From Haplodiscus bocki (taxonomy: Eukaryota): 64,000 nt of DNA. A program made the position numbers and the translations under genes. A model generated the notes under the pieces. That model made no database searches. It worked only from the letters and a program-made list of their open reading frames with translations, and was not told the origin of the DNA. The DNA lies in assembly GCA_965655095.1 (NCBI GenBank), contig OZ296649.1:69130001-69194000 (forward strand), given 5' to 3'. Below are positions 17,822 through 55,515 of the stretch, one piece after another. Numbering within the stretch: position 1 is the stretch's first letter; each line of letters begins with the position of its first letter.

Positions 17822-20800
17822 ATGTCAAAACATATTACCAGAGATCGAACCAAATCAACACCTGATTGCTGGAAAACGTGTTGCGAAACTATCGCAAAAA
17901 CGAGAGCCACTTCGAGTGCTTCGTATGTGGCTGTCGAATGAAACTTACAAAACAGTGCGCGTACCTCAACGAGGACGGAATCAAAGGAACCATGGCACTT
18001 GGGGGAAAACGCCTTCCCAGTGTGTAACGAATGCGTGGATGACCAACAGCCCGAAAAATTCATCAAGGAATCAGAAAGGAAAAGTGAGCAAAACTATCAA
18101 CTACAAAAAAATGAGAAAGAAATGGCTGACCTGAAAAGCTCTGTCTCTGAAATCAAAAATCCTCATGACCCAAAACGTACTCGCAGACACGTCAGGCACC
18201 GAGATCGCTCAGAGTGCAATAAGGACCACCACTGTTAAAGAGAACTTGCTCGGGATTCGAATCAGAGGAATCCCCGAATCCAAAAATGATGGTCGCTGCC
18301 GGCAAGGCCACGACTTTAATGCAGCTCAAAAGGTCTTGGAACACATCAACATTGAAGCAGCATTGTAACGCGACTCGGCGAATACCATACAAACAGAACT
18401 GGGACACCTCTCCTCAAAGTGCCCAACCCATACCAAAGACGCATAATTTTCGTATCAACCCTTAAACTGCAATCTTTTCGGGGAACCGTTTTCTTGAGCC
18501 GCCAACTATCTAAAGAACAAGCAGAACCCGAGACCCTGGCTCTCATCAGGATACCCGAACTGTTACAGCTAGGTGCAAACCCAAGAAGCCTAAGAGTTCA
18601 CGACGCTGTTGTATACATTCGTGACGGCAACATATGGACACCTGACGATGAAAACGGTAACAAGTTGGGCACTCGTGCTACCTGATTCTCTATGGTCCTC
18701 AGTATACTTGTGTTCAACACAAGAAGCATTCTTGACTACCACAGAGGAATTGCCTTCTCAAACGCTGTTGAAACCAAAAACTGCTACCATATCATCTGCT
18801 TCACTGACACTTGGCGAACGCAACACATAACAGACTCTGGACAATTCCTACCAAGCTCTGAGGTACACAGAAAAAACATCCCCGTTGACAGCGGCAACAC
18901 AGTACACGGGGGTGTGCTAGTTGCTGCTACCTAAAACGTACCTAACAATGAAATCGTAACTGACTTCCAAGACTGCTTAATCATCTTTCTTAACCTAAGT
19001 ATACCAATGTTTTTTGCTACCTCTATAGTGGCCCAAAAACTAGACGCTATTCATGGACGACTGATCACTTTCAGGAAATTATCACACTCTTCTGAATAAC
19101 CCAAATCTGACGCAATGCTGCCCAGATCTGCATTGTAGGGGACATCAGTTTTGATACCACTCACTGGCCAAAAATGATCTCATCCTCTGCATAAGAACAA
19201 TTGATAGTCAACGTCTTTGTGTAATGAATTTCCAACAACTTTTTATTAGCCCCACAGCGAAAAGTCTGGACGTCTTTGTTTGCAACAAACCGCAAAAAAT
19301 CATCAGACTAAACGTTGATAACCAAATGAAACATCTCTTCTCATCTGACCACTCCCATTATTTTGTCTAAGGCAGCACAGACTTCCAACCGTACCATGAA
19401 CTCAAACCCCTTCGCAAGCTTTAACATGATTTCGCATCATTTGGGTACAAAAAAGAAAGCTGGAACGAAATCAACGAGTTTATAATTGCTCACCCTTTTG
19501 ACTCTTACTGCAAAAGCAACGTAGAACTAATCGTAGCCCTCTGGTACGAATGGCTCTATGAGAGTGTGCAAGATTTTTTCTTCTCATCACAACTAAGCAC
19601 AGCGTTACTTTAGCACCTTGCGTCAAAAACGAATCGTCTCGTTCAATAAAAAACCTCAACACTTCGCCGAAGAGCTGCAGAAGAAGAAGCAAACCTGCCT
19701 GAAGGCCAAAGTTGAAGAAACTCGGACAAAATTGACATTATCATTACAAAATGAACAGTTCAACCACGAAACAAAATTGCTCCACGAGGCCGATTTCTAG
19801 ACCATGCAGAGGTACTTGAATTCAATTTCAAAGGCAAAGGATACACCATCCAACATCCGCTTGGAACAGAACTTTTCCAAAAATGACTCTGAAAAAGCTG
19901 AATTATACAATCAGTACGTTCAATCTGCCTTTTCGCAAAAGGATTACCAAGTCCAAATAGACCAGGAAAAGGATCCAAAATCTGAAGTGCCTTCACTTCT
20001 CTCCAAGTGAAATTAAAACAATAATCTTCAAACCAGACGTAAACAAGCCGCTCGGCGCCGAGCATATCAGCAATCCACTCCTCGAAAACCTCGCTGAGTC
20101 GTTACTGAAATCCATGGGCATGGTTCTTGTTAATATCGCAAACAAAACTATTTTCCCGGTAAAATGGAAAATGAGTGTCATAGTTCCAATTTTCAAAGCA
20201 GGTGATAAACAAAAGGCAGCAAAAAACACGCCCATTGGCCTTCTAGAGGAGGTCTCCAAAATGCTAGAAAAACTATTTTTCGATCGTCTGTCACCTTCTC
20301 AAAGCTATCACCGAATCAGCTTGGTTTCAAGCCGAAGAGATCTAGCACCTCAAATCTCATCGAATTCTTCCACCATCTGTATACTCAACTTGATTCACCA
20401 AACTGCTCAAGTTTAACTGCTTTGTAAATCAACTTCCAGAAAGCCTTTGACAAGGTTTCCCAATAAAGACTTCTCGAAAAACTGTCAATTTTTCGTAACT
20501 AAAACAATTGCCCCAACCTAATAATGAGCTACCTAAAACAACGGAAACGAAGTGAAAGATCAAATATCAAGCAAACTTCAAGTGCTGAGCGGGCTCCTAC
20601 AAAGATCCTCGCTCGGCCCTTTCTTCTTCCTTTTCTACAGCAAACGACTCGCCCGACATCATAATGTCAACCAACTTTCGCTTTTCAGATGACTTCAAAA
20701 TCATTGCAGAAAATGCGGTTACATTAGACATCCATGTTAGACGAATTTATAATTGGTGTTTCGACAACTTCGTATCAATGAACTTTGCAAAAAGCAATTA

Positions 20801-21578
20801 TCTCGCGATAAAATGGTGCGCTACAGTGTTACCGACCAAATACATTTTCGGAATAGATGAGACAATGAAAGACCTCGGAGTTTTATGGTCTGAAAAACTC
20901 TCAAGGTCGCCTCATGCTATGAAAAGAACAGGGACAGCTATAAAAGCCTTTTACACTCTTGAACAAAACATATCAAAAGCTACAAGCTACACTTGTCGAT
21001 CGAAAAAATGCATGTGTCTCTGATGTTGTTTCAGTCGTTAGCTACGCATCGGCCTTATGGGTGCCCAACAAGGAAGAACTAAGCGTAATCGAAATAGTGC
21101 AGCAGAAAGCTGTAGCCGGGATACTGGGACCAGGCGGCTTCACTTACAAGGAGAAATGGGTTACCTTGGATATTTTACCTCTCTCATTATACCAAGAACT
21201 CCACGTAATCCTTTTACTTGCCAGAATCATGAACGGTAAGATCGACATAGACTGGACGAAACATATGTCAAGGTTAGACTACGGAGGCACAAGAAAGTCA
21301 CAAACTGGCAACTTCGCCGCCAGGACCTTGAGACTCAAAAAAAATGTAAATTTGACTTCTGGTTCCGAGACTGCCAGCTAGCCAACCCCTTCAACGACTA
21401 TTTCGAAGAAGACTTTCCCATCCCGAACCACAAAATCAAACCTCTCAAAAACGAAACAGCCTTTTTCCGGCAAATCGACAGGGAAATGAATCCCTGCACC
21501 TGGCGATTATTTTGTGACTGCAGCGTTTGTAAAGAAACAAAGAAACTGAAAAAACTCGAAATACCACTGCATTAGTAA
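17822..21578 (+). mobile_element. Near full-length decayed CR1/L2-clade LINE (ORF1 PHD/coiled-coil/RRM; ORF2 APE-RT)
   Basis: ORF1 has a Cys-rich segment (PVCNEC), a coiled coil and IRIRGIPE. ORF2 has LVFNTRSI, IICFTDTW, GGVLVA, SDH (~19344), FQKAFD (~20434), FSDDFKI (~20682) and C-terminal WRLFCDCSVC. Many stops and frameshifts. Confidence 0.9.
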
Positions 21579-40812: not shown

Positions 40813-41101
40813 TTTAACGTTTCATGTTATGCTGATGCTGAAGTACAAGACTCAAATAAGGAATTTGCCCAACAAACTTTGAACTCTTATCGATGAAAGA
40901 AATTCTTAATTAAATTTAAACTTTGAAGTTATGGGAGTCATATTTAAGATAATCATCTCCCACTATTCGATTAACAAAGAGAAAAAAATATATATATATA
41001 TATCAAAAATCTTTACCTTTAGAGAGACCACCGGTTTGCAGTATTCTGAATTAAAGTTGATTCAAACTAACCAAATCTCTCTTCTTGAGACGAGCTGTTG
41101 A
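40813..41101 (+). repeat. 5' LTR (portion alignable to the 3' LTR; may extend to ~41141)
   Basis: TAAC.TTTCATGTTATGCTGATGCTGAAG...CTTGAGA.GAGCTGTTGA aligns to 55218-55515. By eye there are about 20 substitutions plus small indels. Confidence 0.95.
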
Positions 41102-41368: not shown

Positions 41369-42602
41369 ATGGCAGCAGCAAAGCCAACAATTACCCTACG
41401 AAAATATGAGGGAGGTTCAATGGATAATTGGACTGGTTTCGAGTCATTGTTTAGAAGTATTGTAGATGTAACGAACATAGGGAACAATCAGCGAGTAGGA
41501 TTTCTTAAACTACACCTGAAAGACGCAGCATTGCAATTTTTTCACACATTAGACAAAAACGCGAGGGCAGACTTACAATTGACAATAACAGCATTGAAAA
41601 ACCATTGTTGTCACCCAAATTTGAAAGAAATTCATCATATAAACTTAAAAAATATGAAGTTTAAGCACAAAACAGAATCATCTGATGAGTTTCTGATGAA
41701 ATTTCAAAATTGAGCCATTAAAGCCTATCCTACGCCAGTGGATGAGCCAGTTGCACCACTTAATAACAGTGGCAAATGACCAAGCAAGAGTTGATGGAGG
41801 AAACCGCGCAAATGAAAACCGACGAAATTTTACCCAAATGGAACGAGAACGACACATAATACGATTATTTAAGAAAGCAATGACAACTTTCAATAGACTC
41901 AATTTTTTAGAAGAACCCGAAAATGCTACGATTCAAGAATTATGTACCAAAGCAAGACAGAAATTAATTTTACGAAAATTATGTCCAGTTGATGACTGGT
42001 CTAGAGACGGATTTAATGAAATGAGTACACACAAGTCAGAAAAATTCCTCACGGTCCTGACTAAAATGACAGAAACTCAAAATTCTCTTGAAAATAGAAT
42101 TAACGCATTGACTGAAAATATTAGTCAGCCACCTCAAGAAACAGCGAGCCAAAACACGGACCAAAATTTCAACTCACAACAAAAATGGAGAGGAGACTTG
42201 AGAGGACGATTTTATCAAAATCGTGGAAACAGAGGAATTATACTAATCAAGGATCGATTACTACCAGAACCACAATCAAAGTCACGGAATATATGGAACA
42301 ATTTTCGAGGGACATTCCGAGGGAGAAATGATTTTAGACGACAGAATTACAGAGGGATTAATCGTGGAAATTATTCCAACCATGACAGCAGGAATCAAAA
42401 TTTTCGACAGTATGATAATCAAAATGCTGAAATGACACTAAATACAGGAAATGTGGAAGGACACATTGAGACAACAGCATTTTCACAAAAAGTTTTTTGT
42501 TCTTCCGGTTATCCTAATCACACATCGAGAATTTGCGAAGCGAGAGGCAGAAGCAGTTCACGAGGTGGACAAATTCTGTTTAACTCGCAGTCAAAAAACT
42601 AA
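41369..42602 (+). pseudogene. gag: gag (Ty3/Gypsy capsid, RG/N-rich region, degenerate CCHC knuckle); disrupted around 41713-41760
   Basis: MAAAKPTITLRKYEG...W..FE..F...LKLHLKDAALQFF capsid-like pattern. RG/N-rich nucleic-acid-binding tract. FCSSGYPNHTSRIC knuckle remnant. Confidence 0.9.
42593..42599 (+). promoter_or_regulatory. -1 ribosomal frameshift heptamer A_AAA_AAC at the gag/pol junction
   Basis: In the gag frame, immediately before TAA (42600-42602). The -1 frame is open from 42599 into the protease ORF at 42653. Confidence 0.85.
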
Positions 42603-43303
42603 TAACGCCACACACGTCAGATAGTCCAGAACCCTCTAACTACTTAAATTCAATGCACTACACTGAGAGTGATCATCCAAATGTTTTATCACCAGAATTA
42701 GTTATTAAACCAAAACCAGCTGAAGAAAACCTGAACCTTAATATGCAAGAAGCTCAGCTTCCTCCAGATTTCGAAATGAATGTGGTCATTCCACTTGAAG
42801 GGGAAAATTTGATGTATTTATTATTGAAATTTGACAATGACGTCAAAAGAAAAGCATTAATTGACACAGGAGCATGTGCTAACACCATGCCGGCCAATTT
42901 TTATAAAAAACTGAGAGAAGCATCGCCGAATTCCCCCTCAGATTTGAAGCAAGCTGCATTTTTAAATATCAAAGTAGCATCGGGGCGCAATGTGAAAGTT
43001 CGTGGCCAAATTGACGTTCAATTCAAAATTTATGAGCGTAGATTCGAAGATACATTCGTAATACTTCCATCAATGAACAGTGTTGTCTTAGGCAACCCTT
43101 TCTTTCGCACATACAGTATAGAAATCAGTGCAGGAGAAAACATACTCAAACTGCCAGAAATGACTTATGAATTGAATGAAATTAAAACTCCTAATGAAGG
43201 ACGCAAAACTATTCCTAAACGACGTTGTCCAGTTTTGATGAGTCAAAAAGTCATAATCAAGGCTCAGCATCAAAAAAACTTTACAGACAAAAGTAGTTTT
43301 TAG
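42599..43303 (+). pseudogene. pol: pol: aspartic protease
   Basis: ALIDTGACAN active site and downstream VVLGNPF. Confidence 0.92.
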
Positions 43304-43879: not shown

Positions 43880-45250
43880 GGCGAAACATAGATTTGATGT
43901 TGGATATAATACTCAGTTGAAAGTTAAGCTGACTCAGCGCATGATTTATCAGTTTCCGTAAAAAGCCCCCCACCCCAATTCACCTGCGAGATGAATTTTG
44001 GTTGAATTAGCTTTAATGCAATATTATGGCATTGTCACACTTTTACCGAACTCTCAATATAATAGTCCAGTATTTGCACAACGAAAGCCGTCAGGGAAAC
44101 TGGAAATATTGATTGATTTGAGGCTTGTTAATCACCTCCTACGAAGTGATCACAGCAATAACAATTTCACCATCTCAAACATGACAGATGCCTTTCATCA
44201 TTTTGCAGGAAAGACTTTGTTTACCAAATTAGATTGTTCACAAGCTTATCACTGTGTACAAATGGCTGACCCCTGATCAGTCCAACTCATATCATTCAAC
44301 TTTGCTTCGAGAACATACGCCTACACAAGATTAGCTCAAGGTTTGAACAAATCGGTGACCGGATTTAGCCCATTTGTCAGATCTTATCTTGATTCTTGCC
44401 TTGCGGCCAACTTATGCACACAATTCATGGATGATATCGGATGTGGAGTGGAGACATTCGAACAAACGGTCCTCACACTTAGACAATTATTTGACTGCGC
44501 AAATCAGGACTTCGATTGACGCCTCATACATGTGAATTTGGAATGACTTCGATAAATTTTCTTGGCAAAACCGTAACCCCAAAAGGACTTAAACCGGAAA
44601 CTGAGAAAATTGGGAAAATTTTGAAGACAATGAAACTACCAGCTACAGTAAGACAAGTGAACAGATTGGTTGGGTTTGTCCTGTCTTTTCGAACCTTTAT
44701 GCCTAGCCTTGCACAAAATCTTATGCTTTGGTATTAACTGCTTAGAAGAGATGAATTTGCACTAAAGAACGAGCACTTGAAAAGTTTTGAAGTACTGAAA
44801 AAAGATCTTTTGCAAGCAACACAAACCACACTACGCTTAGCAAAGCATGGTCAACAATATGTAATCTTTTGTGACGCAAGTTACTACAGTAGTGGATTTG
44901 GACTAATGAATGAGGATTACCTGTACCAAAAAGGTGGAACAAAGAAACAAGCATATGCACCAGTCTTGTTTGGTTCTCAACTTTTTAATACAAGTCAACT
45001 GAAAATGTCAACATACTGTAAAGATTTTGTGGCACTTTACTTTGCTCTAGAGTATTTCTCACATTTCATTTGGGGTGCAGAAAAACCAGTCATTGGTTTG
45101 ACAGATAATACAAGTCACTAGTTTTTCCAGTCTAAATCGCTTCATCCAGCTTTGTGGATTTTTATGGACAAAGTAATTGCATACAATTTTGTCCTAGCAC
45201 ACATACCTGGTAGAGCCAACGAAGCAGCAGACTTGCTGCCCAGAATGCAA
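43880..45250 (+). pseudogene. pol: pol: reverse transcriptase and RNase H
   Basis: YNSPVFAQRKPSGKLEILIDLRLVN, FTKLDCSQAY, LAQG, QFMDDI (FMDD at 44424-44435), INFLG. RNase H motifs YVIFCDAS, TDN and HIPGRANEAADLL. Confidence 0.93.
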
Positions 45251-45691: not shown

Positions 45692-46873
45692 TTGAAAAAT
45701 TATCACGAGCAGTTATCGGGTTTACAAATACAAAAAGGTATTGTGATGCGTCAATTTTTTGATGATGTAAGAAAAGTTTCTCATTATCAAATTCGCATTC
45801 CAAAACATTTACGAAAAGAAGTGCTTTATAGAATTCATAACTCACCCACAAGTGGGCATGTTGGTATAGTCCGAACTGCAGAAGAGTTTCGCCGGAGATT
45901 CCATTTCTCAGGATTGTCTGAGTTCCTCACTGACTTCATCAGGAATTGTTTGTCATGTTCCACGTTAAAGAGTCCAGAACCGGCAACTGCACCCTCCACT
46001 TCAGCCCATCTCATCGGAACAGCTTTTTCCGGGAATTATGATGCAAATTGACTTGGTTGGACCATTCCAATCGCCAATTTACAAATATGCACACGCGGCA
46101 AACGTTGCGAAGGCTCTTCTTTCAATTTTTTGCAGCATAGCTATATTCCTACGACACTTTTATCGGACTTACGGACTAATTTTGTTGCTAAACTATTACA
46201 TGAACTGACGGATTTACTTGAAATTCAACTGCAGCATGCTTCTCTGAAGCACCCACAAACAATTGGGGTAGTTGAACGACCACATTCTGCTCTGAATTGA
46301 GTCTTGAAAGTGAACACAGACAAAAAATGGAACACATGGTACAGGTATGTTGACTTAGCTACGTTCATACACAACACGTCGTACCATTCCTCAATTAGAT
46401 GTACACCCAGTTCTCTGTTTCATGGCAGAGAACCGATTGAACCTATCGATCTGCGATTTCTCAGTCATATTTTAGCGAACAAATAACTAACTTCAGACTA
46501 CTTGGTTGATTTGCAAGACTCCTTGTTAGAACCGTTTTCACGCACAAAATCGAGATTATTGGATGCTTACCATAACTACCGCGCTTACTATGACAAGAAA
46601 GCAGCTGCAAAACCGTTGGCGAACCAACAGTATTGCTTGCTATTGAATCCTTCTGTGTTAGCGCAAAGTGATTTTGCTGCCAAATCAACAACAATTTTTC
46701 TGTCCTTGTATAAAGTTGAAAAAATTTTAACAAAATCCAACTACCTAATGAGAAAAATTGGGACTCCATACACGCAATGTGTTCATCGTGTTGGTTTTAG
46801 ACCGATTACACCTAATTATGAGGTGGAGGACATTTCTGTTACGACGGATGATTTCCGCCCTGATCCAGGCTGA
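45692..46873 (+). pseudogene. pol: pol: integrase
   Basis: HHCC finger H(NSPTSG)H...CLSC. DDE core MQIDLVG / LSD...NF / GVVER. Then HNTSYHSSIRCTPSSLFHGRE. Confidence 0.92.
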
Positions 46874-47718
46874 GGAAAGTATCGATCTGAACATGAGATG
46901 TTTGATTCAACATTGGAAAAATCCATGGAGGATACTTTATTTTATCAAAACTTGCCTCCTAATTTTAGAAATGAAAGTGAAGAAGTCCAACATACCATAG
47001 GAGGAGTAACCGCTGGCCCAGCAGTTCCTGCCCCCGCAAGTAGGATCCGTGTTGCTCCAGCACCAGCTGATGCAACACAGGTCGCTTTTAGGGCTGATCG
47101 AACGCCCCCGTTCCCACCACCACCCGCACTTGAACCGGAACCTCCGGATGAACCGGAAATACTCATTTTTCTTTAACCTAACTTAGACATGGCCCGGATT
47201 CAGGTACGCAACGACTGTTGCCAGCCCGATGTGCGCATGAAACCAACAACGCGGCCGATGAAAAAGAAGCACCTAGAACTCCCGAAGATTCTTCAGGGAC
47301 AAGTGATAATCGTTCGCACGTTCGTACACCACGCCAGGCTGCTCAACCAAGTGTTTGTCAATCGTTTCATCGCCTAAAATTCGACTCTTTTGATCACTAT
47401 AGGAATATACCCTCTAGAAAATTGATTGATGGTGGTTATTAAGCCTATTCAGGTCAACAAGCCGCCACACCACCCACACGCGACAAAAAACGCGAAAACT
47501 TGAAAAATATTGCTCAAACAACAACAGAGCAACTTACGCGAGCAAAAATTCGAATTTTGAATATTCATGAAACGCCCGAAAAATCTATTCTGAAACGACG
47601 GTATCCTCACAGATCAAAGAAAGGACAGCCAGGTCCTTCGTCTGATGTTTCGTCTGCAAAATTTCAACTGATTATGTACGACACACATCAAAAAGATTCA
47701 ATAGACCTACCTCAGAAC

Positions 47719-48141
47719 GTTCATTTTTCAGAGGGTGACTTTTTCAGCAAACCAGATGCAAATTTTGGACATTGTGTATCCTCTGACTTAGCAATGTCAG
47801 CTGGGATAGCAGCGCAATTTTGTCATCTTTTTCCCAAAATGACCGAAATACGTCAAACGCATCAAAGTTTGTCGCCAGGATCTTTAGTTGCGTATTTTAA
47901 CAAAACGAGTAACAATTGGATATGCAATTTAGTCACGAAAAGACGATGCAATGACAAGCCAATGTATTCTGATTTGAACAAATGCCTTTGTCGCATGAAA
48001 AGTCATATGTTGCAATATCATATTACTGAAACTCGCTTACCTCAACTTGGATGTGGATTTGATAAATTAGATAGGAAACACGTTTTATTGAACATTTTCA
48101 ACGTCTTCGGTAACACTGAAATTACTGTGGACATATTTCTC
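47719..48141 (+). pseudogene. TARG1/OARD1 (C6orf130)-family macrodomain at the C-terminus of pol
   Basis: EGDFF...GHCVSSDLAMSAGIAAQF...NLVTKRR..DKP.Y..L..CL..MKSH.....LPQLGCGFDKL matches the TARG1 motifs GDLF/AHCIS.D..MGAGIA/LITKK/MPRIGCGLD.L, including the catalytic Lys and Asp positions. Confidence 0.92.
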
Positions 48142-48584
48142 CTTAAAGTCCAAAATCCTATTAGGTCAGAAAATAGGTTCTTAGCAGAGGAATATTCCTC
48201 AGATGAAGAAATACAACGACTTGTTGAAGGAATGAGTAAAGCACGGAATTTAGCGTTAGAAGGTATGCTTCAATGCCCTCCCACGAATGTCCGAAACGAA
48301 CGTGACAGACCGAGCTGAGAACTGTCACACGAGTTGACCTATTGAGTTGATTACCTTTATCAACTCTTTGGCGACTTACTGTCTGATACAATTGACTCCA
48401 ATATTTACTCAAATTAAGAGTTCGCAGTACTAGCTGTCAATCATTTCTTATCAAAAATAATCACTCAATACTTATCAGTAGTCAAATTACAGTTCAAAAC
48501 TAAATCTCTTTTAGATCAAATTTATGCTTTAGCAAAGCGTACAAACTCCTTCGATCACATTCCCGATCATTCAAACGACCGAAA

Positions 48585-48890
48585 ATGAATAACCAATTTC
48601 GGCGATATCAGCACCGTATTTTAAGGTGTGAATTTTTCCACAATATTGCTAACAGAAGAATTGACTATCGTGGCCTGAATCAGCCATGGCTCAGACTTTA
48701 AACACAGCGCTGGCACCACCAAATGCTGGTGTTTGATGAATTTGATGTCTTACCGCATACATTTGAATGGAGTGCTTTGATTGACTCTGCCAGGCAATAT
48801 GCTGATACGGAAGAGCTGCAAGATTTTGCTGACTGAATTATCGCAGTCGAGCAGCCACAAAGGCGCACATTATTCTTCATGGTCTTGTAA
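48585..48890 (+). pseudogene. Accessory orphan ORF A (paralog 1 of 3), 102 codons with two premature stops
   Basis: MNNQFRRYQHRILRCEFF...PWLRL*TQRW...LPHTFEWSALIDSARQYADTEELQDFAD*II. Its ATG overlaps the upstream TGA. Confidence 0.6.
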
Positions 48891-49016: not shown

Positions 49017-49282
49017 ATGAGTCGTATGTTTTGGAAAATTCACATCACTGGATACACATGTGATTTTCATGGCGTTCCTGTGGTCTGGGGAATTACCCCT
49101 TCAGACATCACCCCCCGATTGGATTTCACAATCCGTTATTGGAGTCAAGGAGCACTCATATAAAAAGATTTTGAAAATCTACCCGGAATCTCTTGAGTGC
49201 CGCTGCTCCCCATGCTCATGACTTCAACTTGGCTGAAGATCTCATTGACTGGATGGCCAGACAATTTCGAAGCCATTTGTGA
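49017..49282 (+). pseudogene. Accessory orphan ORF B (paralog 2 of 3), frameshifted
   Basis: MSRMFWKIHITGYTCDFHGVPVVWGITPSDITPRLDFTIRYW...LP / SAAAPHAHDFNLAEDLIDWMARQFRSHL*. Confidence 0.6.
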
Positions 49283-49599
49283 ATTCAGATCATGACATCA
49301 CAACTTTAATTACTCTTCATATTTCATTTATTTATGTATTGGTAACTTGAACAGGAAAAAAAATCAAAAACACAAAATCAAAAAAAAACACTTTTTTTCA
49401 ATTGAGTCACGATATTTGAGTTTCCAACATCCAATATAGGAATTGTACGTTGTTGATTCATAAGAACAAAATTTCTCTTTGGCATCAGTTTTGCTTGATG
49501 AAAGACAAACAGTATAATTTGTAGTTAGACTTTCTTGAGCATATGAGAACGCTTGACAGCCCTCGTCATTGTTGCATTCTGCCGAGCGCATACTATTAT

Positions 49600-49930
49600 T
49601 TTCGAGAGGTTTCAGTTTTGAAAACACCATCTAAATTGGCTTTATTCCCACGAATTCTACGCTTGCGACGTATTCGGAAGATTCCAACTAGTCGGTATTA
49701 GCGGCGAATTTGGCTACCCCCCACTGATTTTGACATTCCGCCGATGGAATTATGGCCATTTTTTGTACTGGCATGACCCTATTTTCCCGGAAAACCCTGC
49801 TTGGTATGAGCTGATTGCATGCGCAGCCCGTAACGCGAAAGCAGCCCGCAAAGACTCGCTTGTCGACTGGCTAATTCAACTTGACGTCTTTGCCATCCAA
49901 TCCATGGCTTGGTATAATCAGCGCGAGTGA
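49600..49930 (+). pseudogene. Accessory orphan ORF C (paralog 3 of 3), start uncertain
   Basis: F*KHHLNWLYSHEFYACDVFGRFQLVGISGEFGYPPLILTFRRW...FPENPAWYELIACAARNAKAARKDSLVDWLIQLD. Confidence 0.6.
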
Positions 49931-50584: not shown

Positions 50585-51709
50585 TCACTTTTTTTCTGCT
50601 TGTTGATGTTCGTGTTTTCTCAAACCCCGTGGAAAGTTGGCAGCTCTCCTGTGGCGTCGTGATTTGCCTGGTTTCTGCGCCACATTTTGTTGTTTTCCGT
50701 CAATTTGGAAACATTCAATATGCTGTCCAAGCTCGGTTTTCTCGCGCTCAGTGTCAGCTAAGTATCCCCATATTTTTGTATATGCACAATTTCGATAAGC
50801 CAGTAGTTTTTTCCTCTTTGCAATCCTGGGGAATAATATTTTAGCACCTGTTGTTGCCTTCGCGTATCTATATGCGACTTGCTTTCAAATCTGGCAACCA
50901 ATGCTGGCCCTTCTGACACAGTTAATACAGTGTGGGTTGAAAGACCAGGCTGCAGCATACATGATGTAGGGGTTGTCCAATAAAATCTAATTTTCTTCTT
51001 GCTCACTGTTGAGCGCGGTCTCTTTAGCAGAAAATTCAATAAGGCTTTAGTTCTTTGCAAGTTGTTCCTTTATCCTTGACTGACAGCCACTTTCGGCAAT
51101 AATCATCAATTTTCCAATCGGGACATGGGTGATGCTGTCGTCGCCTCCTGTTTCTATGCGACCTCGAGTGTACCAAATCCCGAAAGAGGCAATAGCATCT
51201 AACTTTGTTAATTGCAGCCCTTCCGGCATTTTAAATTTCACTAACCCATCCGGAGAAAAATACCATGCTGTAGACTGGTAAACGATTGATCCATACTTGT
51301 AATTTACTTGTACACGCGGTGCTCCCCTTGCCGCTTAATCTGTTGCAGAAGCTCCACTGCACTTGCGGCACTTTTTTCGACAAACGCTGCATGCAGTTGA
51401 AAGAGTTGTTGTTTTTCAAGGATAATAGGAATAGTCGGCCCTCCATTTTGAATACATTCTGCTAACCCAAGGTCTGCCACTTTCTCGGAGAGTCCCTCCC
51501 AGGTATCCATGTTTGATTCATCTACTCTCTGCACTGGTAACCAACCCAACTGTAGTAACCTCGTTTCATTCGGGCTAGTTAGCGCTTCCTGATTTCCTTT
51601 GCCACTGGCCCAGCGAGTTTTCTTTGTCCAGCGTTTCAGCTATAACAGTACGACCAACACAAACTCTCATTGAACTAACCCATAATATTTTGTCTCCGGA
51701 TGTCTCCAT
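50585..51709 (-). pseudogene. Antisense JmjC-domain (KDM2/KDM7-like 2OG-Fe(II) oxygenase) gene inside the LTR element, frameshifted
   Basis: ASFGIWYTRG[R]IETGGDDSITHVPIGKLMIIA aligns to [28 protein letters not shown]. About 75 codons later, FYWTTPTSCMLQPGLSTHTVLTVSEGPALVA aligns to [22 protein letters not shown]. Confidence 0.7.
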
Positions 51710-52446
51710 TTTGGAAGCCGTCCATTACTCACTCTTTGGCCTCTCTGCCGCTTTATTATTTGTTAGGGATTCTTTTACGCATACATAAGCGTTTCACACT
51801 TCCCGATTTCCGGCCCTCTTTGGCTTCTCCGTCTGCGCCCTTTGTGTGCTATTTTCTTTTCTGAAAAATTTAACACACATTTACTGTGTTAGTTCAATTT
51901 TTTCCTGCTCCTACTCACAGTCTCGGTATTTGGTTGGTTTAAATTGCAAAACTAAATTACACTAGGTAGGGAACATAACTCTATTCTAGTCTATCCATGT
52001 CAATTACAGTCGGTTCTGCTACACCTGTTTCTCTGATTGTAAACCTGGCAATGCATTGCTGCAGTTATTTGCCTTCATTCTGCAAGTGTTTGCCACATCC
52101 GCCGCCAAATCATCAACAGAAGCAGTAACCCCGACAGTACCATTAGCAAGACCCACGAATTGTCAAAGGATTCGGTCGCCCGCCACACTCTCTGACACGC
52201 GGGCAAGACACGGGATGCCCAATGTTCCCCCACACAGGTCGCACCAGGGCAACAGATAACTTTTATTCCGTCCACAAACTTTGTGGAGCACGTTTTTTTG
52301 AGCTCTGAAAAGCTCGGCGTACCTTTTAGACATGTTTTGTACATAACAAAAAAACAGACGAAAAGAAGACAAACGACACAAACGACGAAGCACGAACACA
52401 AAAGAAACAAAAATTAAAGAAAACTCTGAGCGCACGAATTACACCT

Positions 52447-54777
52447 ATGCCGAATATAAATTCTGCTAACAAGACGTCCCCTTGTTGTTTTTTTCTCCCT
52501 GACTCCTATCGCACATTTTTTTACGCAACGTTTTTTTTCTGTGGTTTTCTTCCTATTGCCTGCACATGCCACCCCGACTGGATGGAAAGCTGACATTATT
52601 GCCGACCAAAACTCAGGCGCAGTACTCGCAAATGGCATCATTTTTAATCATGTTACAAAATTTCTGTTACCTGAAAAGTTAATAAATGTTGATTTTATGG
52701 TTGCCCTTCCAAAGTTCGACATGAACATAAGTGCCAATTTAGACGCCTACATAGCGAAATTGGAACAGCTTTGGAGCCATCCCAGTTGGCTATATCATTT
52801 AGATTACGCCTCTAACTTTCGAAAGAATGATTCTACTTTCGATATTGATTGGCTTCTCCACCAAGTTCAGACAGAAGTTACTCTTGCTGAACTCGAGCTT
52901 ATGGCTCTCCGCAACTGTACTTCGTCATTTCTGAACACGGAACAACATACCGCCTCTGGACACAACCGCTCGCCCAGGGCAGCGCCTCTTGCTATGATGG
53001 CGCTTGCTTCCGTTGGATTGTTTGGCTCAGGAATTGCCCTTGGAACTGGAGAATGCGGACTTAGAGGAATTTCTGGATCATGCCAAGAGCGTGCAAAACA
53101 AAACGCGGCCAACATTGAAAAATTATCCGAATTTACAGACTTCTTAGCCGAATATGTCTTCAAATTGCAAAATGAAGTGAACGAAAAATTTTTTACGCTT
53201 ACGACGGAAGTTGCTGCGCTTAAAACACTTCAAAAGGAAATGCTCGAAATCCAAAATCGTAACTGGAAACTGATAGAACAACATTTTGATCTCTTCGAAC
53301 GCAATATTCATGTAGTACGTGACTGACCAGCTGTTATTCTCTAGACAACAAATAAATTTCATTTTTGATACACTTTGTTGGTTACTGACGATCAGGTTTG
53401 CCGATATAAAAAGTTACAGAAGCGCACTTTACACTTACCGCATCAACATGATGTATTCAATCCAGCCAATGCTTAACAATTACCTTCCTATGTCGTTAGT
53501 TCCTGGACAATCGCTCTTAACAATATTAGATAATGTTGCATTGGAACAATGGCGTCAAAAGGATACACTTTCTTTAGCCATTCCTATGGATGAAATATTA
53601 GCTTATTACGAGTTAAAATTACTCCGAGATGTTATAGTAGTCGAACAAGCACTTATCATGCGAATAGCAATTCCACTAGCAACGAAGGAATCAGCATTTA
53701 CAGTCTTTCGCGCTATAGCAGTGCCGATGCCTCAACCGGAACCAGACATGGCAATTAAATGGAAATTAGAAGCGCCTTATTTAGCTATTTCGGAAAGCAA
53801 TGATGAGACGGTCTTTTTAACAGAATATGATTTCTCACGATGTATCGGTTCATCTCGCTATCAGATATGCCTAGAAATGATTGCAACTGAATCAGGTCAT
53901 GAGTCCTGTCTAGCAGCTCTTTACTTCAAGGACAGCGTTGAGGCGTTAGAAATTTGCGAAACAGAGCAAATTATTCGGCCTTCTACGGGAAAAGCAGAAA
54001 ACATGCTTTGGAGCTTGGCTCATCACTTCGGCAACGACCGCTTTTACATTTTATGAATCAGATACTGACTCGACTACTTCAGCTGGAATAATTAATTATC
54101 CGGGATGCCGAATCTGCATCATCACCCTTAAGTGTGGAAAGCAAATGTCTGGTCCTCACATCGAAATTAGATCGGACCTCAGTACTTGCGAAAAACTTCC
54201 CGCTATTAAGGTCAATGTACAGTTTCCAGACCCTTTAAAGCAGTTATGGAGTGAACTGCCAGAAATTGGTGACATGCCTTACTACTCTACAAAGACAGAA
54301 GTCATTACTTCTAGAATGACACAGTTGAGACCTTCACTCTCAAAGGAATTTGAATCTCATCTTTCCATCAAGCACTCTTTGCTAATGAGCTTGATTTCAT
54401 TTATTGGTTCGATGATTCTTCATGTGATTGTTGTTTGCTTTTATCACCGATATAAGCATCGTCATCCCACTATACTATTATGGTGTGGGTTATTTTGTCC
54501 TAAAATCCCTCAACGCAAAGCCCCGCGCAGAGCGTCTGCCCCAGATGATGTTGACCAATATCGTTTAGGCCCTGTTAGTGCGCCTGCTCAAGATCATTCT
54601 GAAAAGGTCAGAAATCTCTCTCGTAAATCTTCTACATCTCCTCTGAAGGATGCGATGTTTGACGCTATAGTCGACTACCAGAAACAGGCTCCGCAGATGC
54701 CTGATGTTACTAAAAATCAAGCACCCACTGGCCCCGAAGTCTACAGCAGCACATCGCAGGATATCCGCCTCAATTGA
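52447..54777 (+). pseudogene. env: env: class I F-type fusion glycoprotein (errantivirus/baculovirus-F-like)
   Basis: Signal-like VVFFLLPAHA|TP (probable ATG at 52447 with a poly-T frameshift). Furin site RSPR (52967-52978), then the fusion peptide AAPLAMMALASVGLFGSGIALG and a long heptad repeat. LIMRIAIPL..F.VFRAIAVPMP, YLAI, a Cys-rich region, TM SLLMSLISFIGSMILHVIVVCFY and a cytoplasmic tail. Confidence 0.9.
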
Positions 54778-55217: not shown

Positions 55218-55515
55218 AGTAACATTTCATGTTATGCTGATGCTGAAGCACAAGACTCAAATAAGGAATTTGCCCAACAAACTTTGAACTCTCTTATCGA
55301 TGAAAGGAATTGTTATTTAAATTTAAACTTTGAAGTTATGGGAGTCATACTGACGCTATATTTAAGACAATCATCTCCCACTAATCGATAAACAGAGATA
55401 AATATATATATATATAGCAAAAATCTTTACCTATAGAGAGACCACCGATTTGCACTATTCTGAATTAAAATTGACTTAAACTAACCAAATCTCTCTTCTT
55501 GAGAGGAGCTGTTGA
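55218..55515 (+). repeat. 3' LTR (possibly truncated at its right end)
   Basis: Direct repeat of 40813-41101; homology stops abruptly after GAGCTGTTGA. Confidence 0.95.

Follow-up and report, generated by a model that had tools for sequence, protein, structure and literature searches.

The Pol polyprotein of the retroelement described here almost certainly ends, to judge from this locus and its relatives, in the order integrase, long linker, TARG1-type macrodomain, short tail and stop codon. The locus lies in a 64,000-nucleotide stretch of a Haplodiscus bocki contig (hereafter, the window) and is a decayed Ty3/gypsy-like LTR element of ~14.7 kb, which belongs to a multi-copy family and has an env-like gene. 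Its pol holds so many stops and frameshifts that this copy is dead. The features of the element are the following:

40815–41101, + strand: 5′ LTR, 88% identical over 300 columns to 55220–55515
41369–42602, + strand: gag-like ORF, with a frame change near 41700 and a weak match to Pfam DUF1759 (E 1e-5)
42593–42599, + strand: slippery heptamer A AAA AAC, directly 5′ of the gag stop, with pol in the −1 frame
42836–43108, + strand: aspartyl protease (Pfam PF13975, E 1.7e-4, under the curated cut-off)
43995–45112, + strand: reverse transcriptase and RNase H (Pfam PF00078, PF17919 and PF17917; tblastn of relatives), broken by stops and frameshifts
45797–46906, + strand: integrase (H2C2 zinc finger, core and C-terminal domain; Pfam PF17921, E 1e-14), broken in the window copy
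46907–47718, + strand: Pro-rich, polar, fast-changing linker, with stops at 47174 and 47440 and a frameshift near 47221–47233
47719–48141, + strand: macrodomain of TARG1/OARD1 type by sequence and predicted fold, with a Lys codon at 47938–47940 and an Asp codon at 48061–48063
48142–48315, + strand: 58-residue helical tail, common to the near subfamilies and missing from the distant ones
48316–48318, + strand: TGA, the natural Pol end; 10 near relatives stop −10 to +5 residues from it and 9 distant ones earlier
48319–48588, + strand: the proposed 'extension', DNA common to many copies and outside Pol in every relative
48585–48890, + strand: ORF-B, a separate 101-codon gene with two stops in the window copy
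52460–54777, + strand: env-like gene in three frames, with a basic cleavage-like site, a hydrophobic peptide and a C-terminal hydrophobic segment
55205–55219, + strand: polypurine tract, read from the sequence
55220–55515, + strand: 3′ LTR, which pairs with the 5′ LTR at 88% identity

The element was assigned to the Ty3/gypsy-like group on the basis of its two LTRs and polypurine tract, together with the Pol order protease, reverse transcriptase, RNase H and integrase and the Ty3-like character of the reverse transcriptase and integrase (the latter is 77% identical to residues 1–249 of protein P0002). Neither a primer-binding site nor a target-site duplication was identified by eye, the LTR ends being decayed, and the Pfam scans of the window pieces and of the relatives returned no chromo family at the integrase C-terminus, the trait of chromoviruses. 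From retroviral examples, we take the heptamer preceding the gag stop to be a putative frameshift site. About 4 kb of small decayed frames separate pol from the env-like gene. No Pfam env family matched the latter, and its resemblance to class I fusion proteins, those of negative-strand RNA viruses, is weak (an Atlas score of 0.93 at low recognition and E 0.91 for a PDB fusion glycoprotein); we note it as a lead only. The anatomy of the gene, which precedes the 3′ LTR, would suit an errantivirus-like element, and if the gene is real, the element family is virus-like. Elsewhere in the window, fragments resembling a non-LTR reverse transcriptase were identified by eye at 19961–21378 (+ strand).

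A first-pass annotation of the window had recognized, behind the integrase and a Pro-rich linker, a near-intact macrodomain of TARG1/OARD1 type with TKR and GCGFD motifs, and the domain, its position and both motifs were all recovered in our analysis. The frame from 47443 to 48315 runs for 291 codons without a stop, which none of 500 shuffles did. In a search of PDB sequences, the macrodomain matched human OARD1 (E 5e-22, 32–33% identity); five of the six sequences returned were human TARG1 and the sixth was noise (E 0.94). Pfam recognized no family in the 291-residue ORF and gave E 0.058 on the macrodomain core. Folding of the single sequence yielded a model with a pLDDT of 37.7, and a model built from an 80-row alignment (mean pLDDT 86.5) was used instead. 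The top eight fold matches of this predicted structure were all human TARG1, the best with an rmsd of 1.5 Å over 142 columns; DarG came next (E 3e-10), and DarG and viral macrodomains ranked below TARG1. Membership of the DarG antitoxin family was rejected, the score against NCBIfam NF048014 being 43.9 bits for a cut-off of 250.

The active-site residues point the same way. The Lys of the LVTKRR motif (codon at 47938) aligns with TARG1 Lys84, and the Asp of the GCGFD motif (codon at 48061) aligns with TARG1 Asp125, 41 residues past the Lys as in the human chain. Lys84 and Asp125 are given as the catalytic residues of TARG1 in the excerpted text of PMC9411070, PMC7050489 and PMC8120803. Note that the window copy carries a substitution at one usually conserved Trp position of the macrodomain, which is Trp in 134 of the 154 other rows.

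The same annotation had read integrase, linker and macrodomain as one frame. For the window copy this is not so: the integrase lies, with the first half of the linker, in a frame other than that of the macrodomain, and stops at 46871, 47174 and 47440, as well as a frame change near 47221–47233, intervene. It does hold for intact relatives. Among 199 collected proteins, 19 match both the window integrase and the window macrodomain. After setting aside P0155, P0180 and P0181, whose domain order differs, and P0026, which has an internal deletion, there remain 15 proteins, representing 7 clusters at 90% identity, in which integrase, linker and macrodomain are contained in a single ORF (in P0008 and P0173, two of the 15, the sequence breaks off within the macrodomain). 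There is thus no fixed stop between integrase and macrodomain. Indeed, P0156 and P0200 extend without a stop from reverse transcriptase through RNase H, integrase, linker and macrodomain to the Pol end. In six continuous relatives, the linker is 220–265 residues long and contains 11–13% Pro.

Contigs from the same organism gave 531–607 pieces per run over 2.8 kb (four runs, from at most two samples of one study, which may include the source of the window). The depth at stops 46484 and 47174 comes nearly all from copies devoid of those stops, and some copies have an indel at the site of the window frameshift; stops 46871, 47440, 48316, 48343 and 48415 do not appear among the 40 differing places listed out of 399. 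We also observed that, within 46964–48852, numerous contigs skip part of the linker and macrodomain (15 joints listed and 40 more), which suggests internally deleted copies.

A recent processed-pseudogene insertion, restricted to one copy or a few, was rejected as the origin of the macrodomain, since the domain is found in 7 integrase-bearing clusters and in L004 and its best match outside the near family is only 41% identical. The fusion is old and inherited across a clade: 15 proteins carry it in one ORF, and the integrase tree agrees with the macrodomain tree in its main split, P0200 and P0145 separating from the rest in both (98/98, 100/99). These seven-row trees resolve the main split only, not the finer branching. 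In a 33-row tree, the clade, along with its nearest outside row P0101 (a long-branch SLOG fusion), stands apart from the named animal OARD1 proteins and from the macrodomains of other LTR elements and of the picorna-like polyprotein P0109 (97/91).

We compared conservation along Pol, measured as protein identity, among the six continuous relatives. Identity is 58–87% for the integrase C-terminal domain and 16–49% for the linker. When the divergent P0004 is left out, identity amounts to 35–59% for the macrodomain versus 20–49% for the linker, the macrodomain value exceeding that of the linker in 10 of 10 pairs. Of 20 clade sequences covering the respective site, 19 retain the catalytic Lys and 18 of 20 the Asp (five Asp sites missed by the search pattern were read directly from the sequence).

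Two groups depart from this arrangement. The subfamily made up of P0004, P0163, P0166 and P0170, which evolves fast and forms a long branch, has kept the ORF and lost both the dyad and the binding-loop motifs, so that eraser activity would be dispensable there. In this subfamily (a cluster of 25 members), Gln occupies the catalytic Lys site, as it does in Streptomyces SCO6735 according to the part of PMC9411070 consulted. In a sister lineage (L002, L003 and L005; 100/99), Pol ends after the linker, and no macrodomain was found within the 239–326 bases past the Pol stop; in L004, a macrodomain is present.

It had further been proposed that the Pol frame continues for about 90 codons past the TGA at 48316, the in-frame TGAs being plausibly former TGG codons. 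The text of this stretch and its closing TGA at 48586–48588 are as quoted, but the stretch is not part of Pol in any of 19 relatives. The distance from the GCG loop to the end of the ORF could be measured in 19 of 23 relatives (the pattern failed in the other four): it amounts to 93 residues in the window, 83–98 in ten near relatives and 35–48 in nine distant ones, whereas a Pol reaching 48585 would need 183. The TGA at 48316 therefore coincides with the natural Pol end of the relatives and, by present evidence, is not a decayed sense codon. Besides the TGA at 48343, the stretch after 48318 contains a TAA at 48415 that the first-pass annotation did not mention.

That Pol nonetheless runs some 90 residues past 48318, whether in intact copies or by stop-codon read-through, appears very improbable to us. 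It would account for the low number of stops in this frame (2 in 89 codons, versus 6 and 4 in the other two frames), although, with 5.0 stops expected, a deficit of this size is not significant (p 0.09 for this frame and 0.30 for any of the three). The DNA at 48368–48555 is also common to many copies, its depth in the same-organism contigs (445–2465) being as high as or higher than that of most macrodomain bins, and read-through would be invisible in predicted proteins because these end at the first stop. Against it, none of the 19 relatives measured runs more than 5 residues past the equivalent of TGA 48316: their ends scatter from −10 to +5, and the distant ones end 45–58 residues earlier. 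None of 212 collected proteins matches 48340–48560, and a search for homologues of 48–156 aa, weak in that it needs three shared 5-residue words, returned no candidate. Finally, ORF-B starts with Met-Asn (ATG-AAT), which forces the closing TGA at 48586; this TGA therefore says nothing in favour of a coding frame. We also weighed, for the extension, an ORF that would start at ATG 48287 and overlap Pol; it is unsupported, as its frame closes at 48335 and no indel falls in 48290–48340 among the 12 of 14 indels listed. Most likely, 48319–48588 is either intergenic or a small gene in its own right.

ORF-B itself lies directly behind pol and, with the next 150 bases, has the highest copy depth in the 2.8 kb compared. 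All 12 candidates examined are homologues of it (48–80% identical), five of them being 101–102 aa long with the same start; it showed no Pfam family above the cut-off and no usable Atlas match. Three of these 12 proteins also match 49625–49885 (+ strand) weakly in a within-window search (24–26% identity, E 2e-5 to 7e-4); the locus is possibly the product of a small-gene duplication. An ATG-started frame of ~90 codons with two internal stops is present at 49018–49295 (+ strand), and several antisense frames of 95–112 codons, some Cys-rich or hydrophobic, occupy 50585–52413 (− strand) between pol and the env-like gene; they may be fragments of an accessory gene in antisense orientation.

TARG1-type domains also occur in other elements. 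When 1.84 billion representatives were searched, 1986 matches were obtained at E 0.001; we retained the best 150 and scanned 62 proteins (P0008 and 61 from among the 62 longest) with Pfam. Of these 62, four are other LTR-type proteins that contain such a domain. It lies between RNase H and integrase in P0084 (from a weevil) and P0155, after RNase H in P0135 (from a snail; P0180, a member of the same cluster, has the integrase first and the macrodomain last) and after the protease in P0108. Another of the proteins scanned, P0109, is the picorna-like polyprotein of Crogonang virus 134, with a TARG1-type macrodomain retaining the dyad at residues 1411–1551, between helicase and polymerase. The macrodomains known from most RNA viruses are, by contrast, of MacroD type. 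None of 18 pattern matches in viral contigs was a relative.

In the 33-row tree, the weevil domain and a beetle host protein form a pair (98/93), and the snail domain is grouped with fish OARD1 (84/92). A single clade for all LTR macrodomains was rejected (p-AU 0.022), a test that is weakened by the choice of the 33 rows after inspection of a quick 175-row tree, itself mostly without resolved branches. The TARG1-type domains at three other Pol positions in unrelated LTR elements thus apparently represent separate captures.

What might the domain do? On balance, an active, particle-borne de-ADP-ribosylase is the somewhat more probable reading; it is favoured by the TARG1-type fold, the conserved dyad, the inherited fusion, the constraint on the macrodomain and the repeated captures. 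The first-pass annotation had similarly proposed that Pol would deliver a de-ADP-ribosylase with the pre-integration complex. Pol would be made by −1 frameshifting as Gag-Pol, so that the macrodomain would be packaged into the particle, either tethered to integrase or released by the protease of the element. Once there, it would use its Lys/Asp dyad to hydrolyse ADP-ribose placed by host PARP-family enzymes on the RNA, cDNA or proteins of the element, or on the proteins present at the gapped site of integration; its removal would protect reverse transcription or integration. Acidic residues and the ends of nucleic acids are substrates of TARG1 (PMC7050489, in excerpt), and the portion seen of a 2026 preprint (bioRxiv 10.64898/2026.03.31.715305) states that base-linked ADP-ribose on RNA is selectively reversed by TARG1. 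L1 silencing has been tied to ADP-ribosylation through SIRT6, a different enzyme and a different element (PMC4695847, in the section available). The dyad-less P0004 subfamily, the sister lineage that lacks the domain past its Pol stop and the truncated P0008 and P0173 all speak against an active eraser. The first of these would suit a domain acting as a reader, which would steer insertion by anchoring the integration complex at damage sites or on ADP-ribosylated chromatin. By analogy, gypsy chromodomains use the slot that the macrodomain occupies here, behind a long linker at the C-terminal end of integrase (bioRxiv 2021.11.30.470311, as far as its text was seen), and TARG1 localises to damage sites (the same section of PMC4695847). 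A reader is nonetheless rather unlikely: nearly all subfamilies retain the dyad, the dyad-less one has changed binding-loop residues too, and other LTR elements put the domain away from the integrase end, which a packaged enzyme fits better than a tether.

An active eraser might instead be processed to an accessory protein, comparable to RNA-virus macrodomains, whose targets would be host translation or RNA granules rather than anything in the particle. The polar linker of 220–265 residues could be cut, the picorna-like P0109 carries the same domain class and the element has other small accessory ORFs. However, a Pol fusion behind a probable frameshift would be made in low amounts and directed to particles, and a free ORF would suit the role better, which makes this alternative distinctly unlikely. 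Highly improbable, in our opinion, is a mere passenger, i.e. a host TARG1 sequence captured once and carried without benefit. Its absence in frame from the sister lineage and its degeneration in one subfamily would be natural for such a passenger, but dyad and fold persist among elements with 58–67% identity in the integrase C-terminal domain and with linkers down to about 20%.

ADP-ribosylation is a weapon in RNA-virus conflicts and in bacterial toxin–antitoxin pairs; in the literature searched, it has been little explored as a restriction of LTR retrotransposons. A fixed eraser on integrase hints that host cells use ADP-ribose tags against mobile DNA. More broadly, it is conceivable, though we hold the idea as doubtful, that unrelated Ty3/gypsy lineages repeatedly captured intact erasers, at four Pol positions, and that these captures mark a hitherto undescribed restriction in which ADP-ribose is put by host PARP-family enzymes on retrotransposon RNA or cDNA, at bases or ends where TARG1-type enzymes reverse it, the integrase-tethered form cleaning the cDNA at integration. 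The integrase–TARG1 fusion, for which the dyad-less subfamily and the sister lineage devoid of a macrodomain serve as natural controls, offers substrates and enzymes for testing such a restriction, as do the separate beetle and snail captures.

The closest known system is human TARG1/OARD1/C6orf130 (PDB 4J5Q, 4J5R and 4J5S), of which the window domain has the predicted fold and the equivalents of Lys84 and Asp125. It differs in being the last domain of a retroelement Pol and in having, in the near subfamilies, two extra C-terminal helices, and the retroelement clade groups apart from animal OARD1, as described above. The DarG macrodomain (PDB 5M31 and 5M3E), the next-best fold, has the catalytic lysine in common with the window domain; identity is 19%, no DarT partner is seen, and DarG lacks the Asp (PMC9411070, same part as above).

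Macrodomain cargo in LTR elements is already published: according to PMC4977317, which cites Basta et al. (2009), some fish epsilon-like endogenous retroviruses have a macro domain as additional ORFs. In the family described here, the domain is an in-frame part of Pol in a gypsy-like clade. For the integrase fusion, no description was found: the literature searched, which leaves out Repbase, GyDB, supplements and most subscription journals, holds none of a TARG1-type domain in a gypsy Pol, and the arrangement may be annotated already in transposon databases. The domains of the weevil (XP_076269006), the snail (KAL8622506), P0155 and P0108 belong to the same class, with the dyad, and are likewise in frame in a Ty3/gypsy-like Pol, but they occupy other positions in it and do not group with the window clade.

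As for the rest of Pol, the best solved relative of P0156 is yeast Ty3 Gag-Pol (PDB 7Q5B, E 3e-34), with the same order of protease, reverse transcriptase, RNase H and integrase; the macrodomain, the small ORFs and the env-like gene come in addition in the window element. Chromodomain-bearing gypsy integrases such as that of MAGGY also have an accessory domain at the integrase C-terminus. The MAGGY-type chromodomain reads histone methylation, whereas the Pfam scans found no chromodomain in the window element, and its macrodomain represents a second type of accessory domain at the C-terminus of a gypsy integrase.
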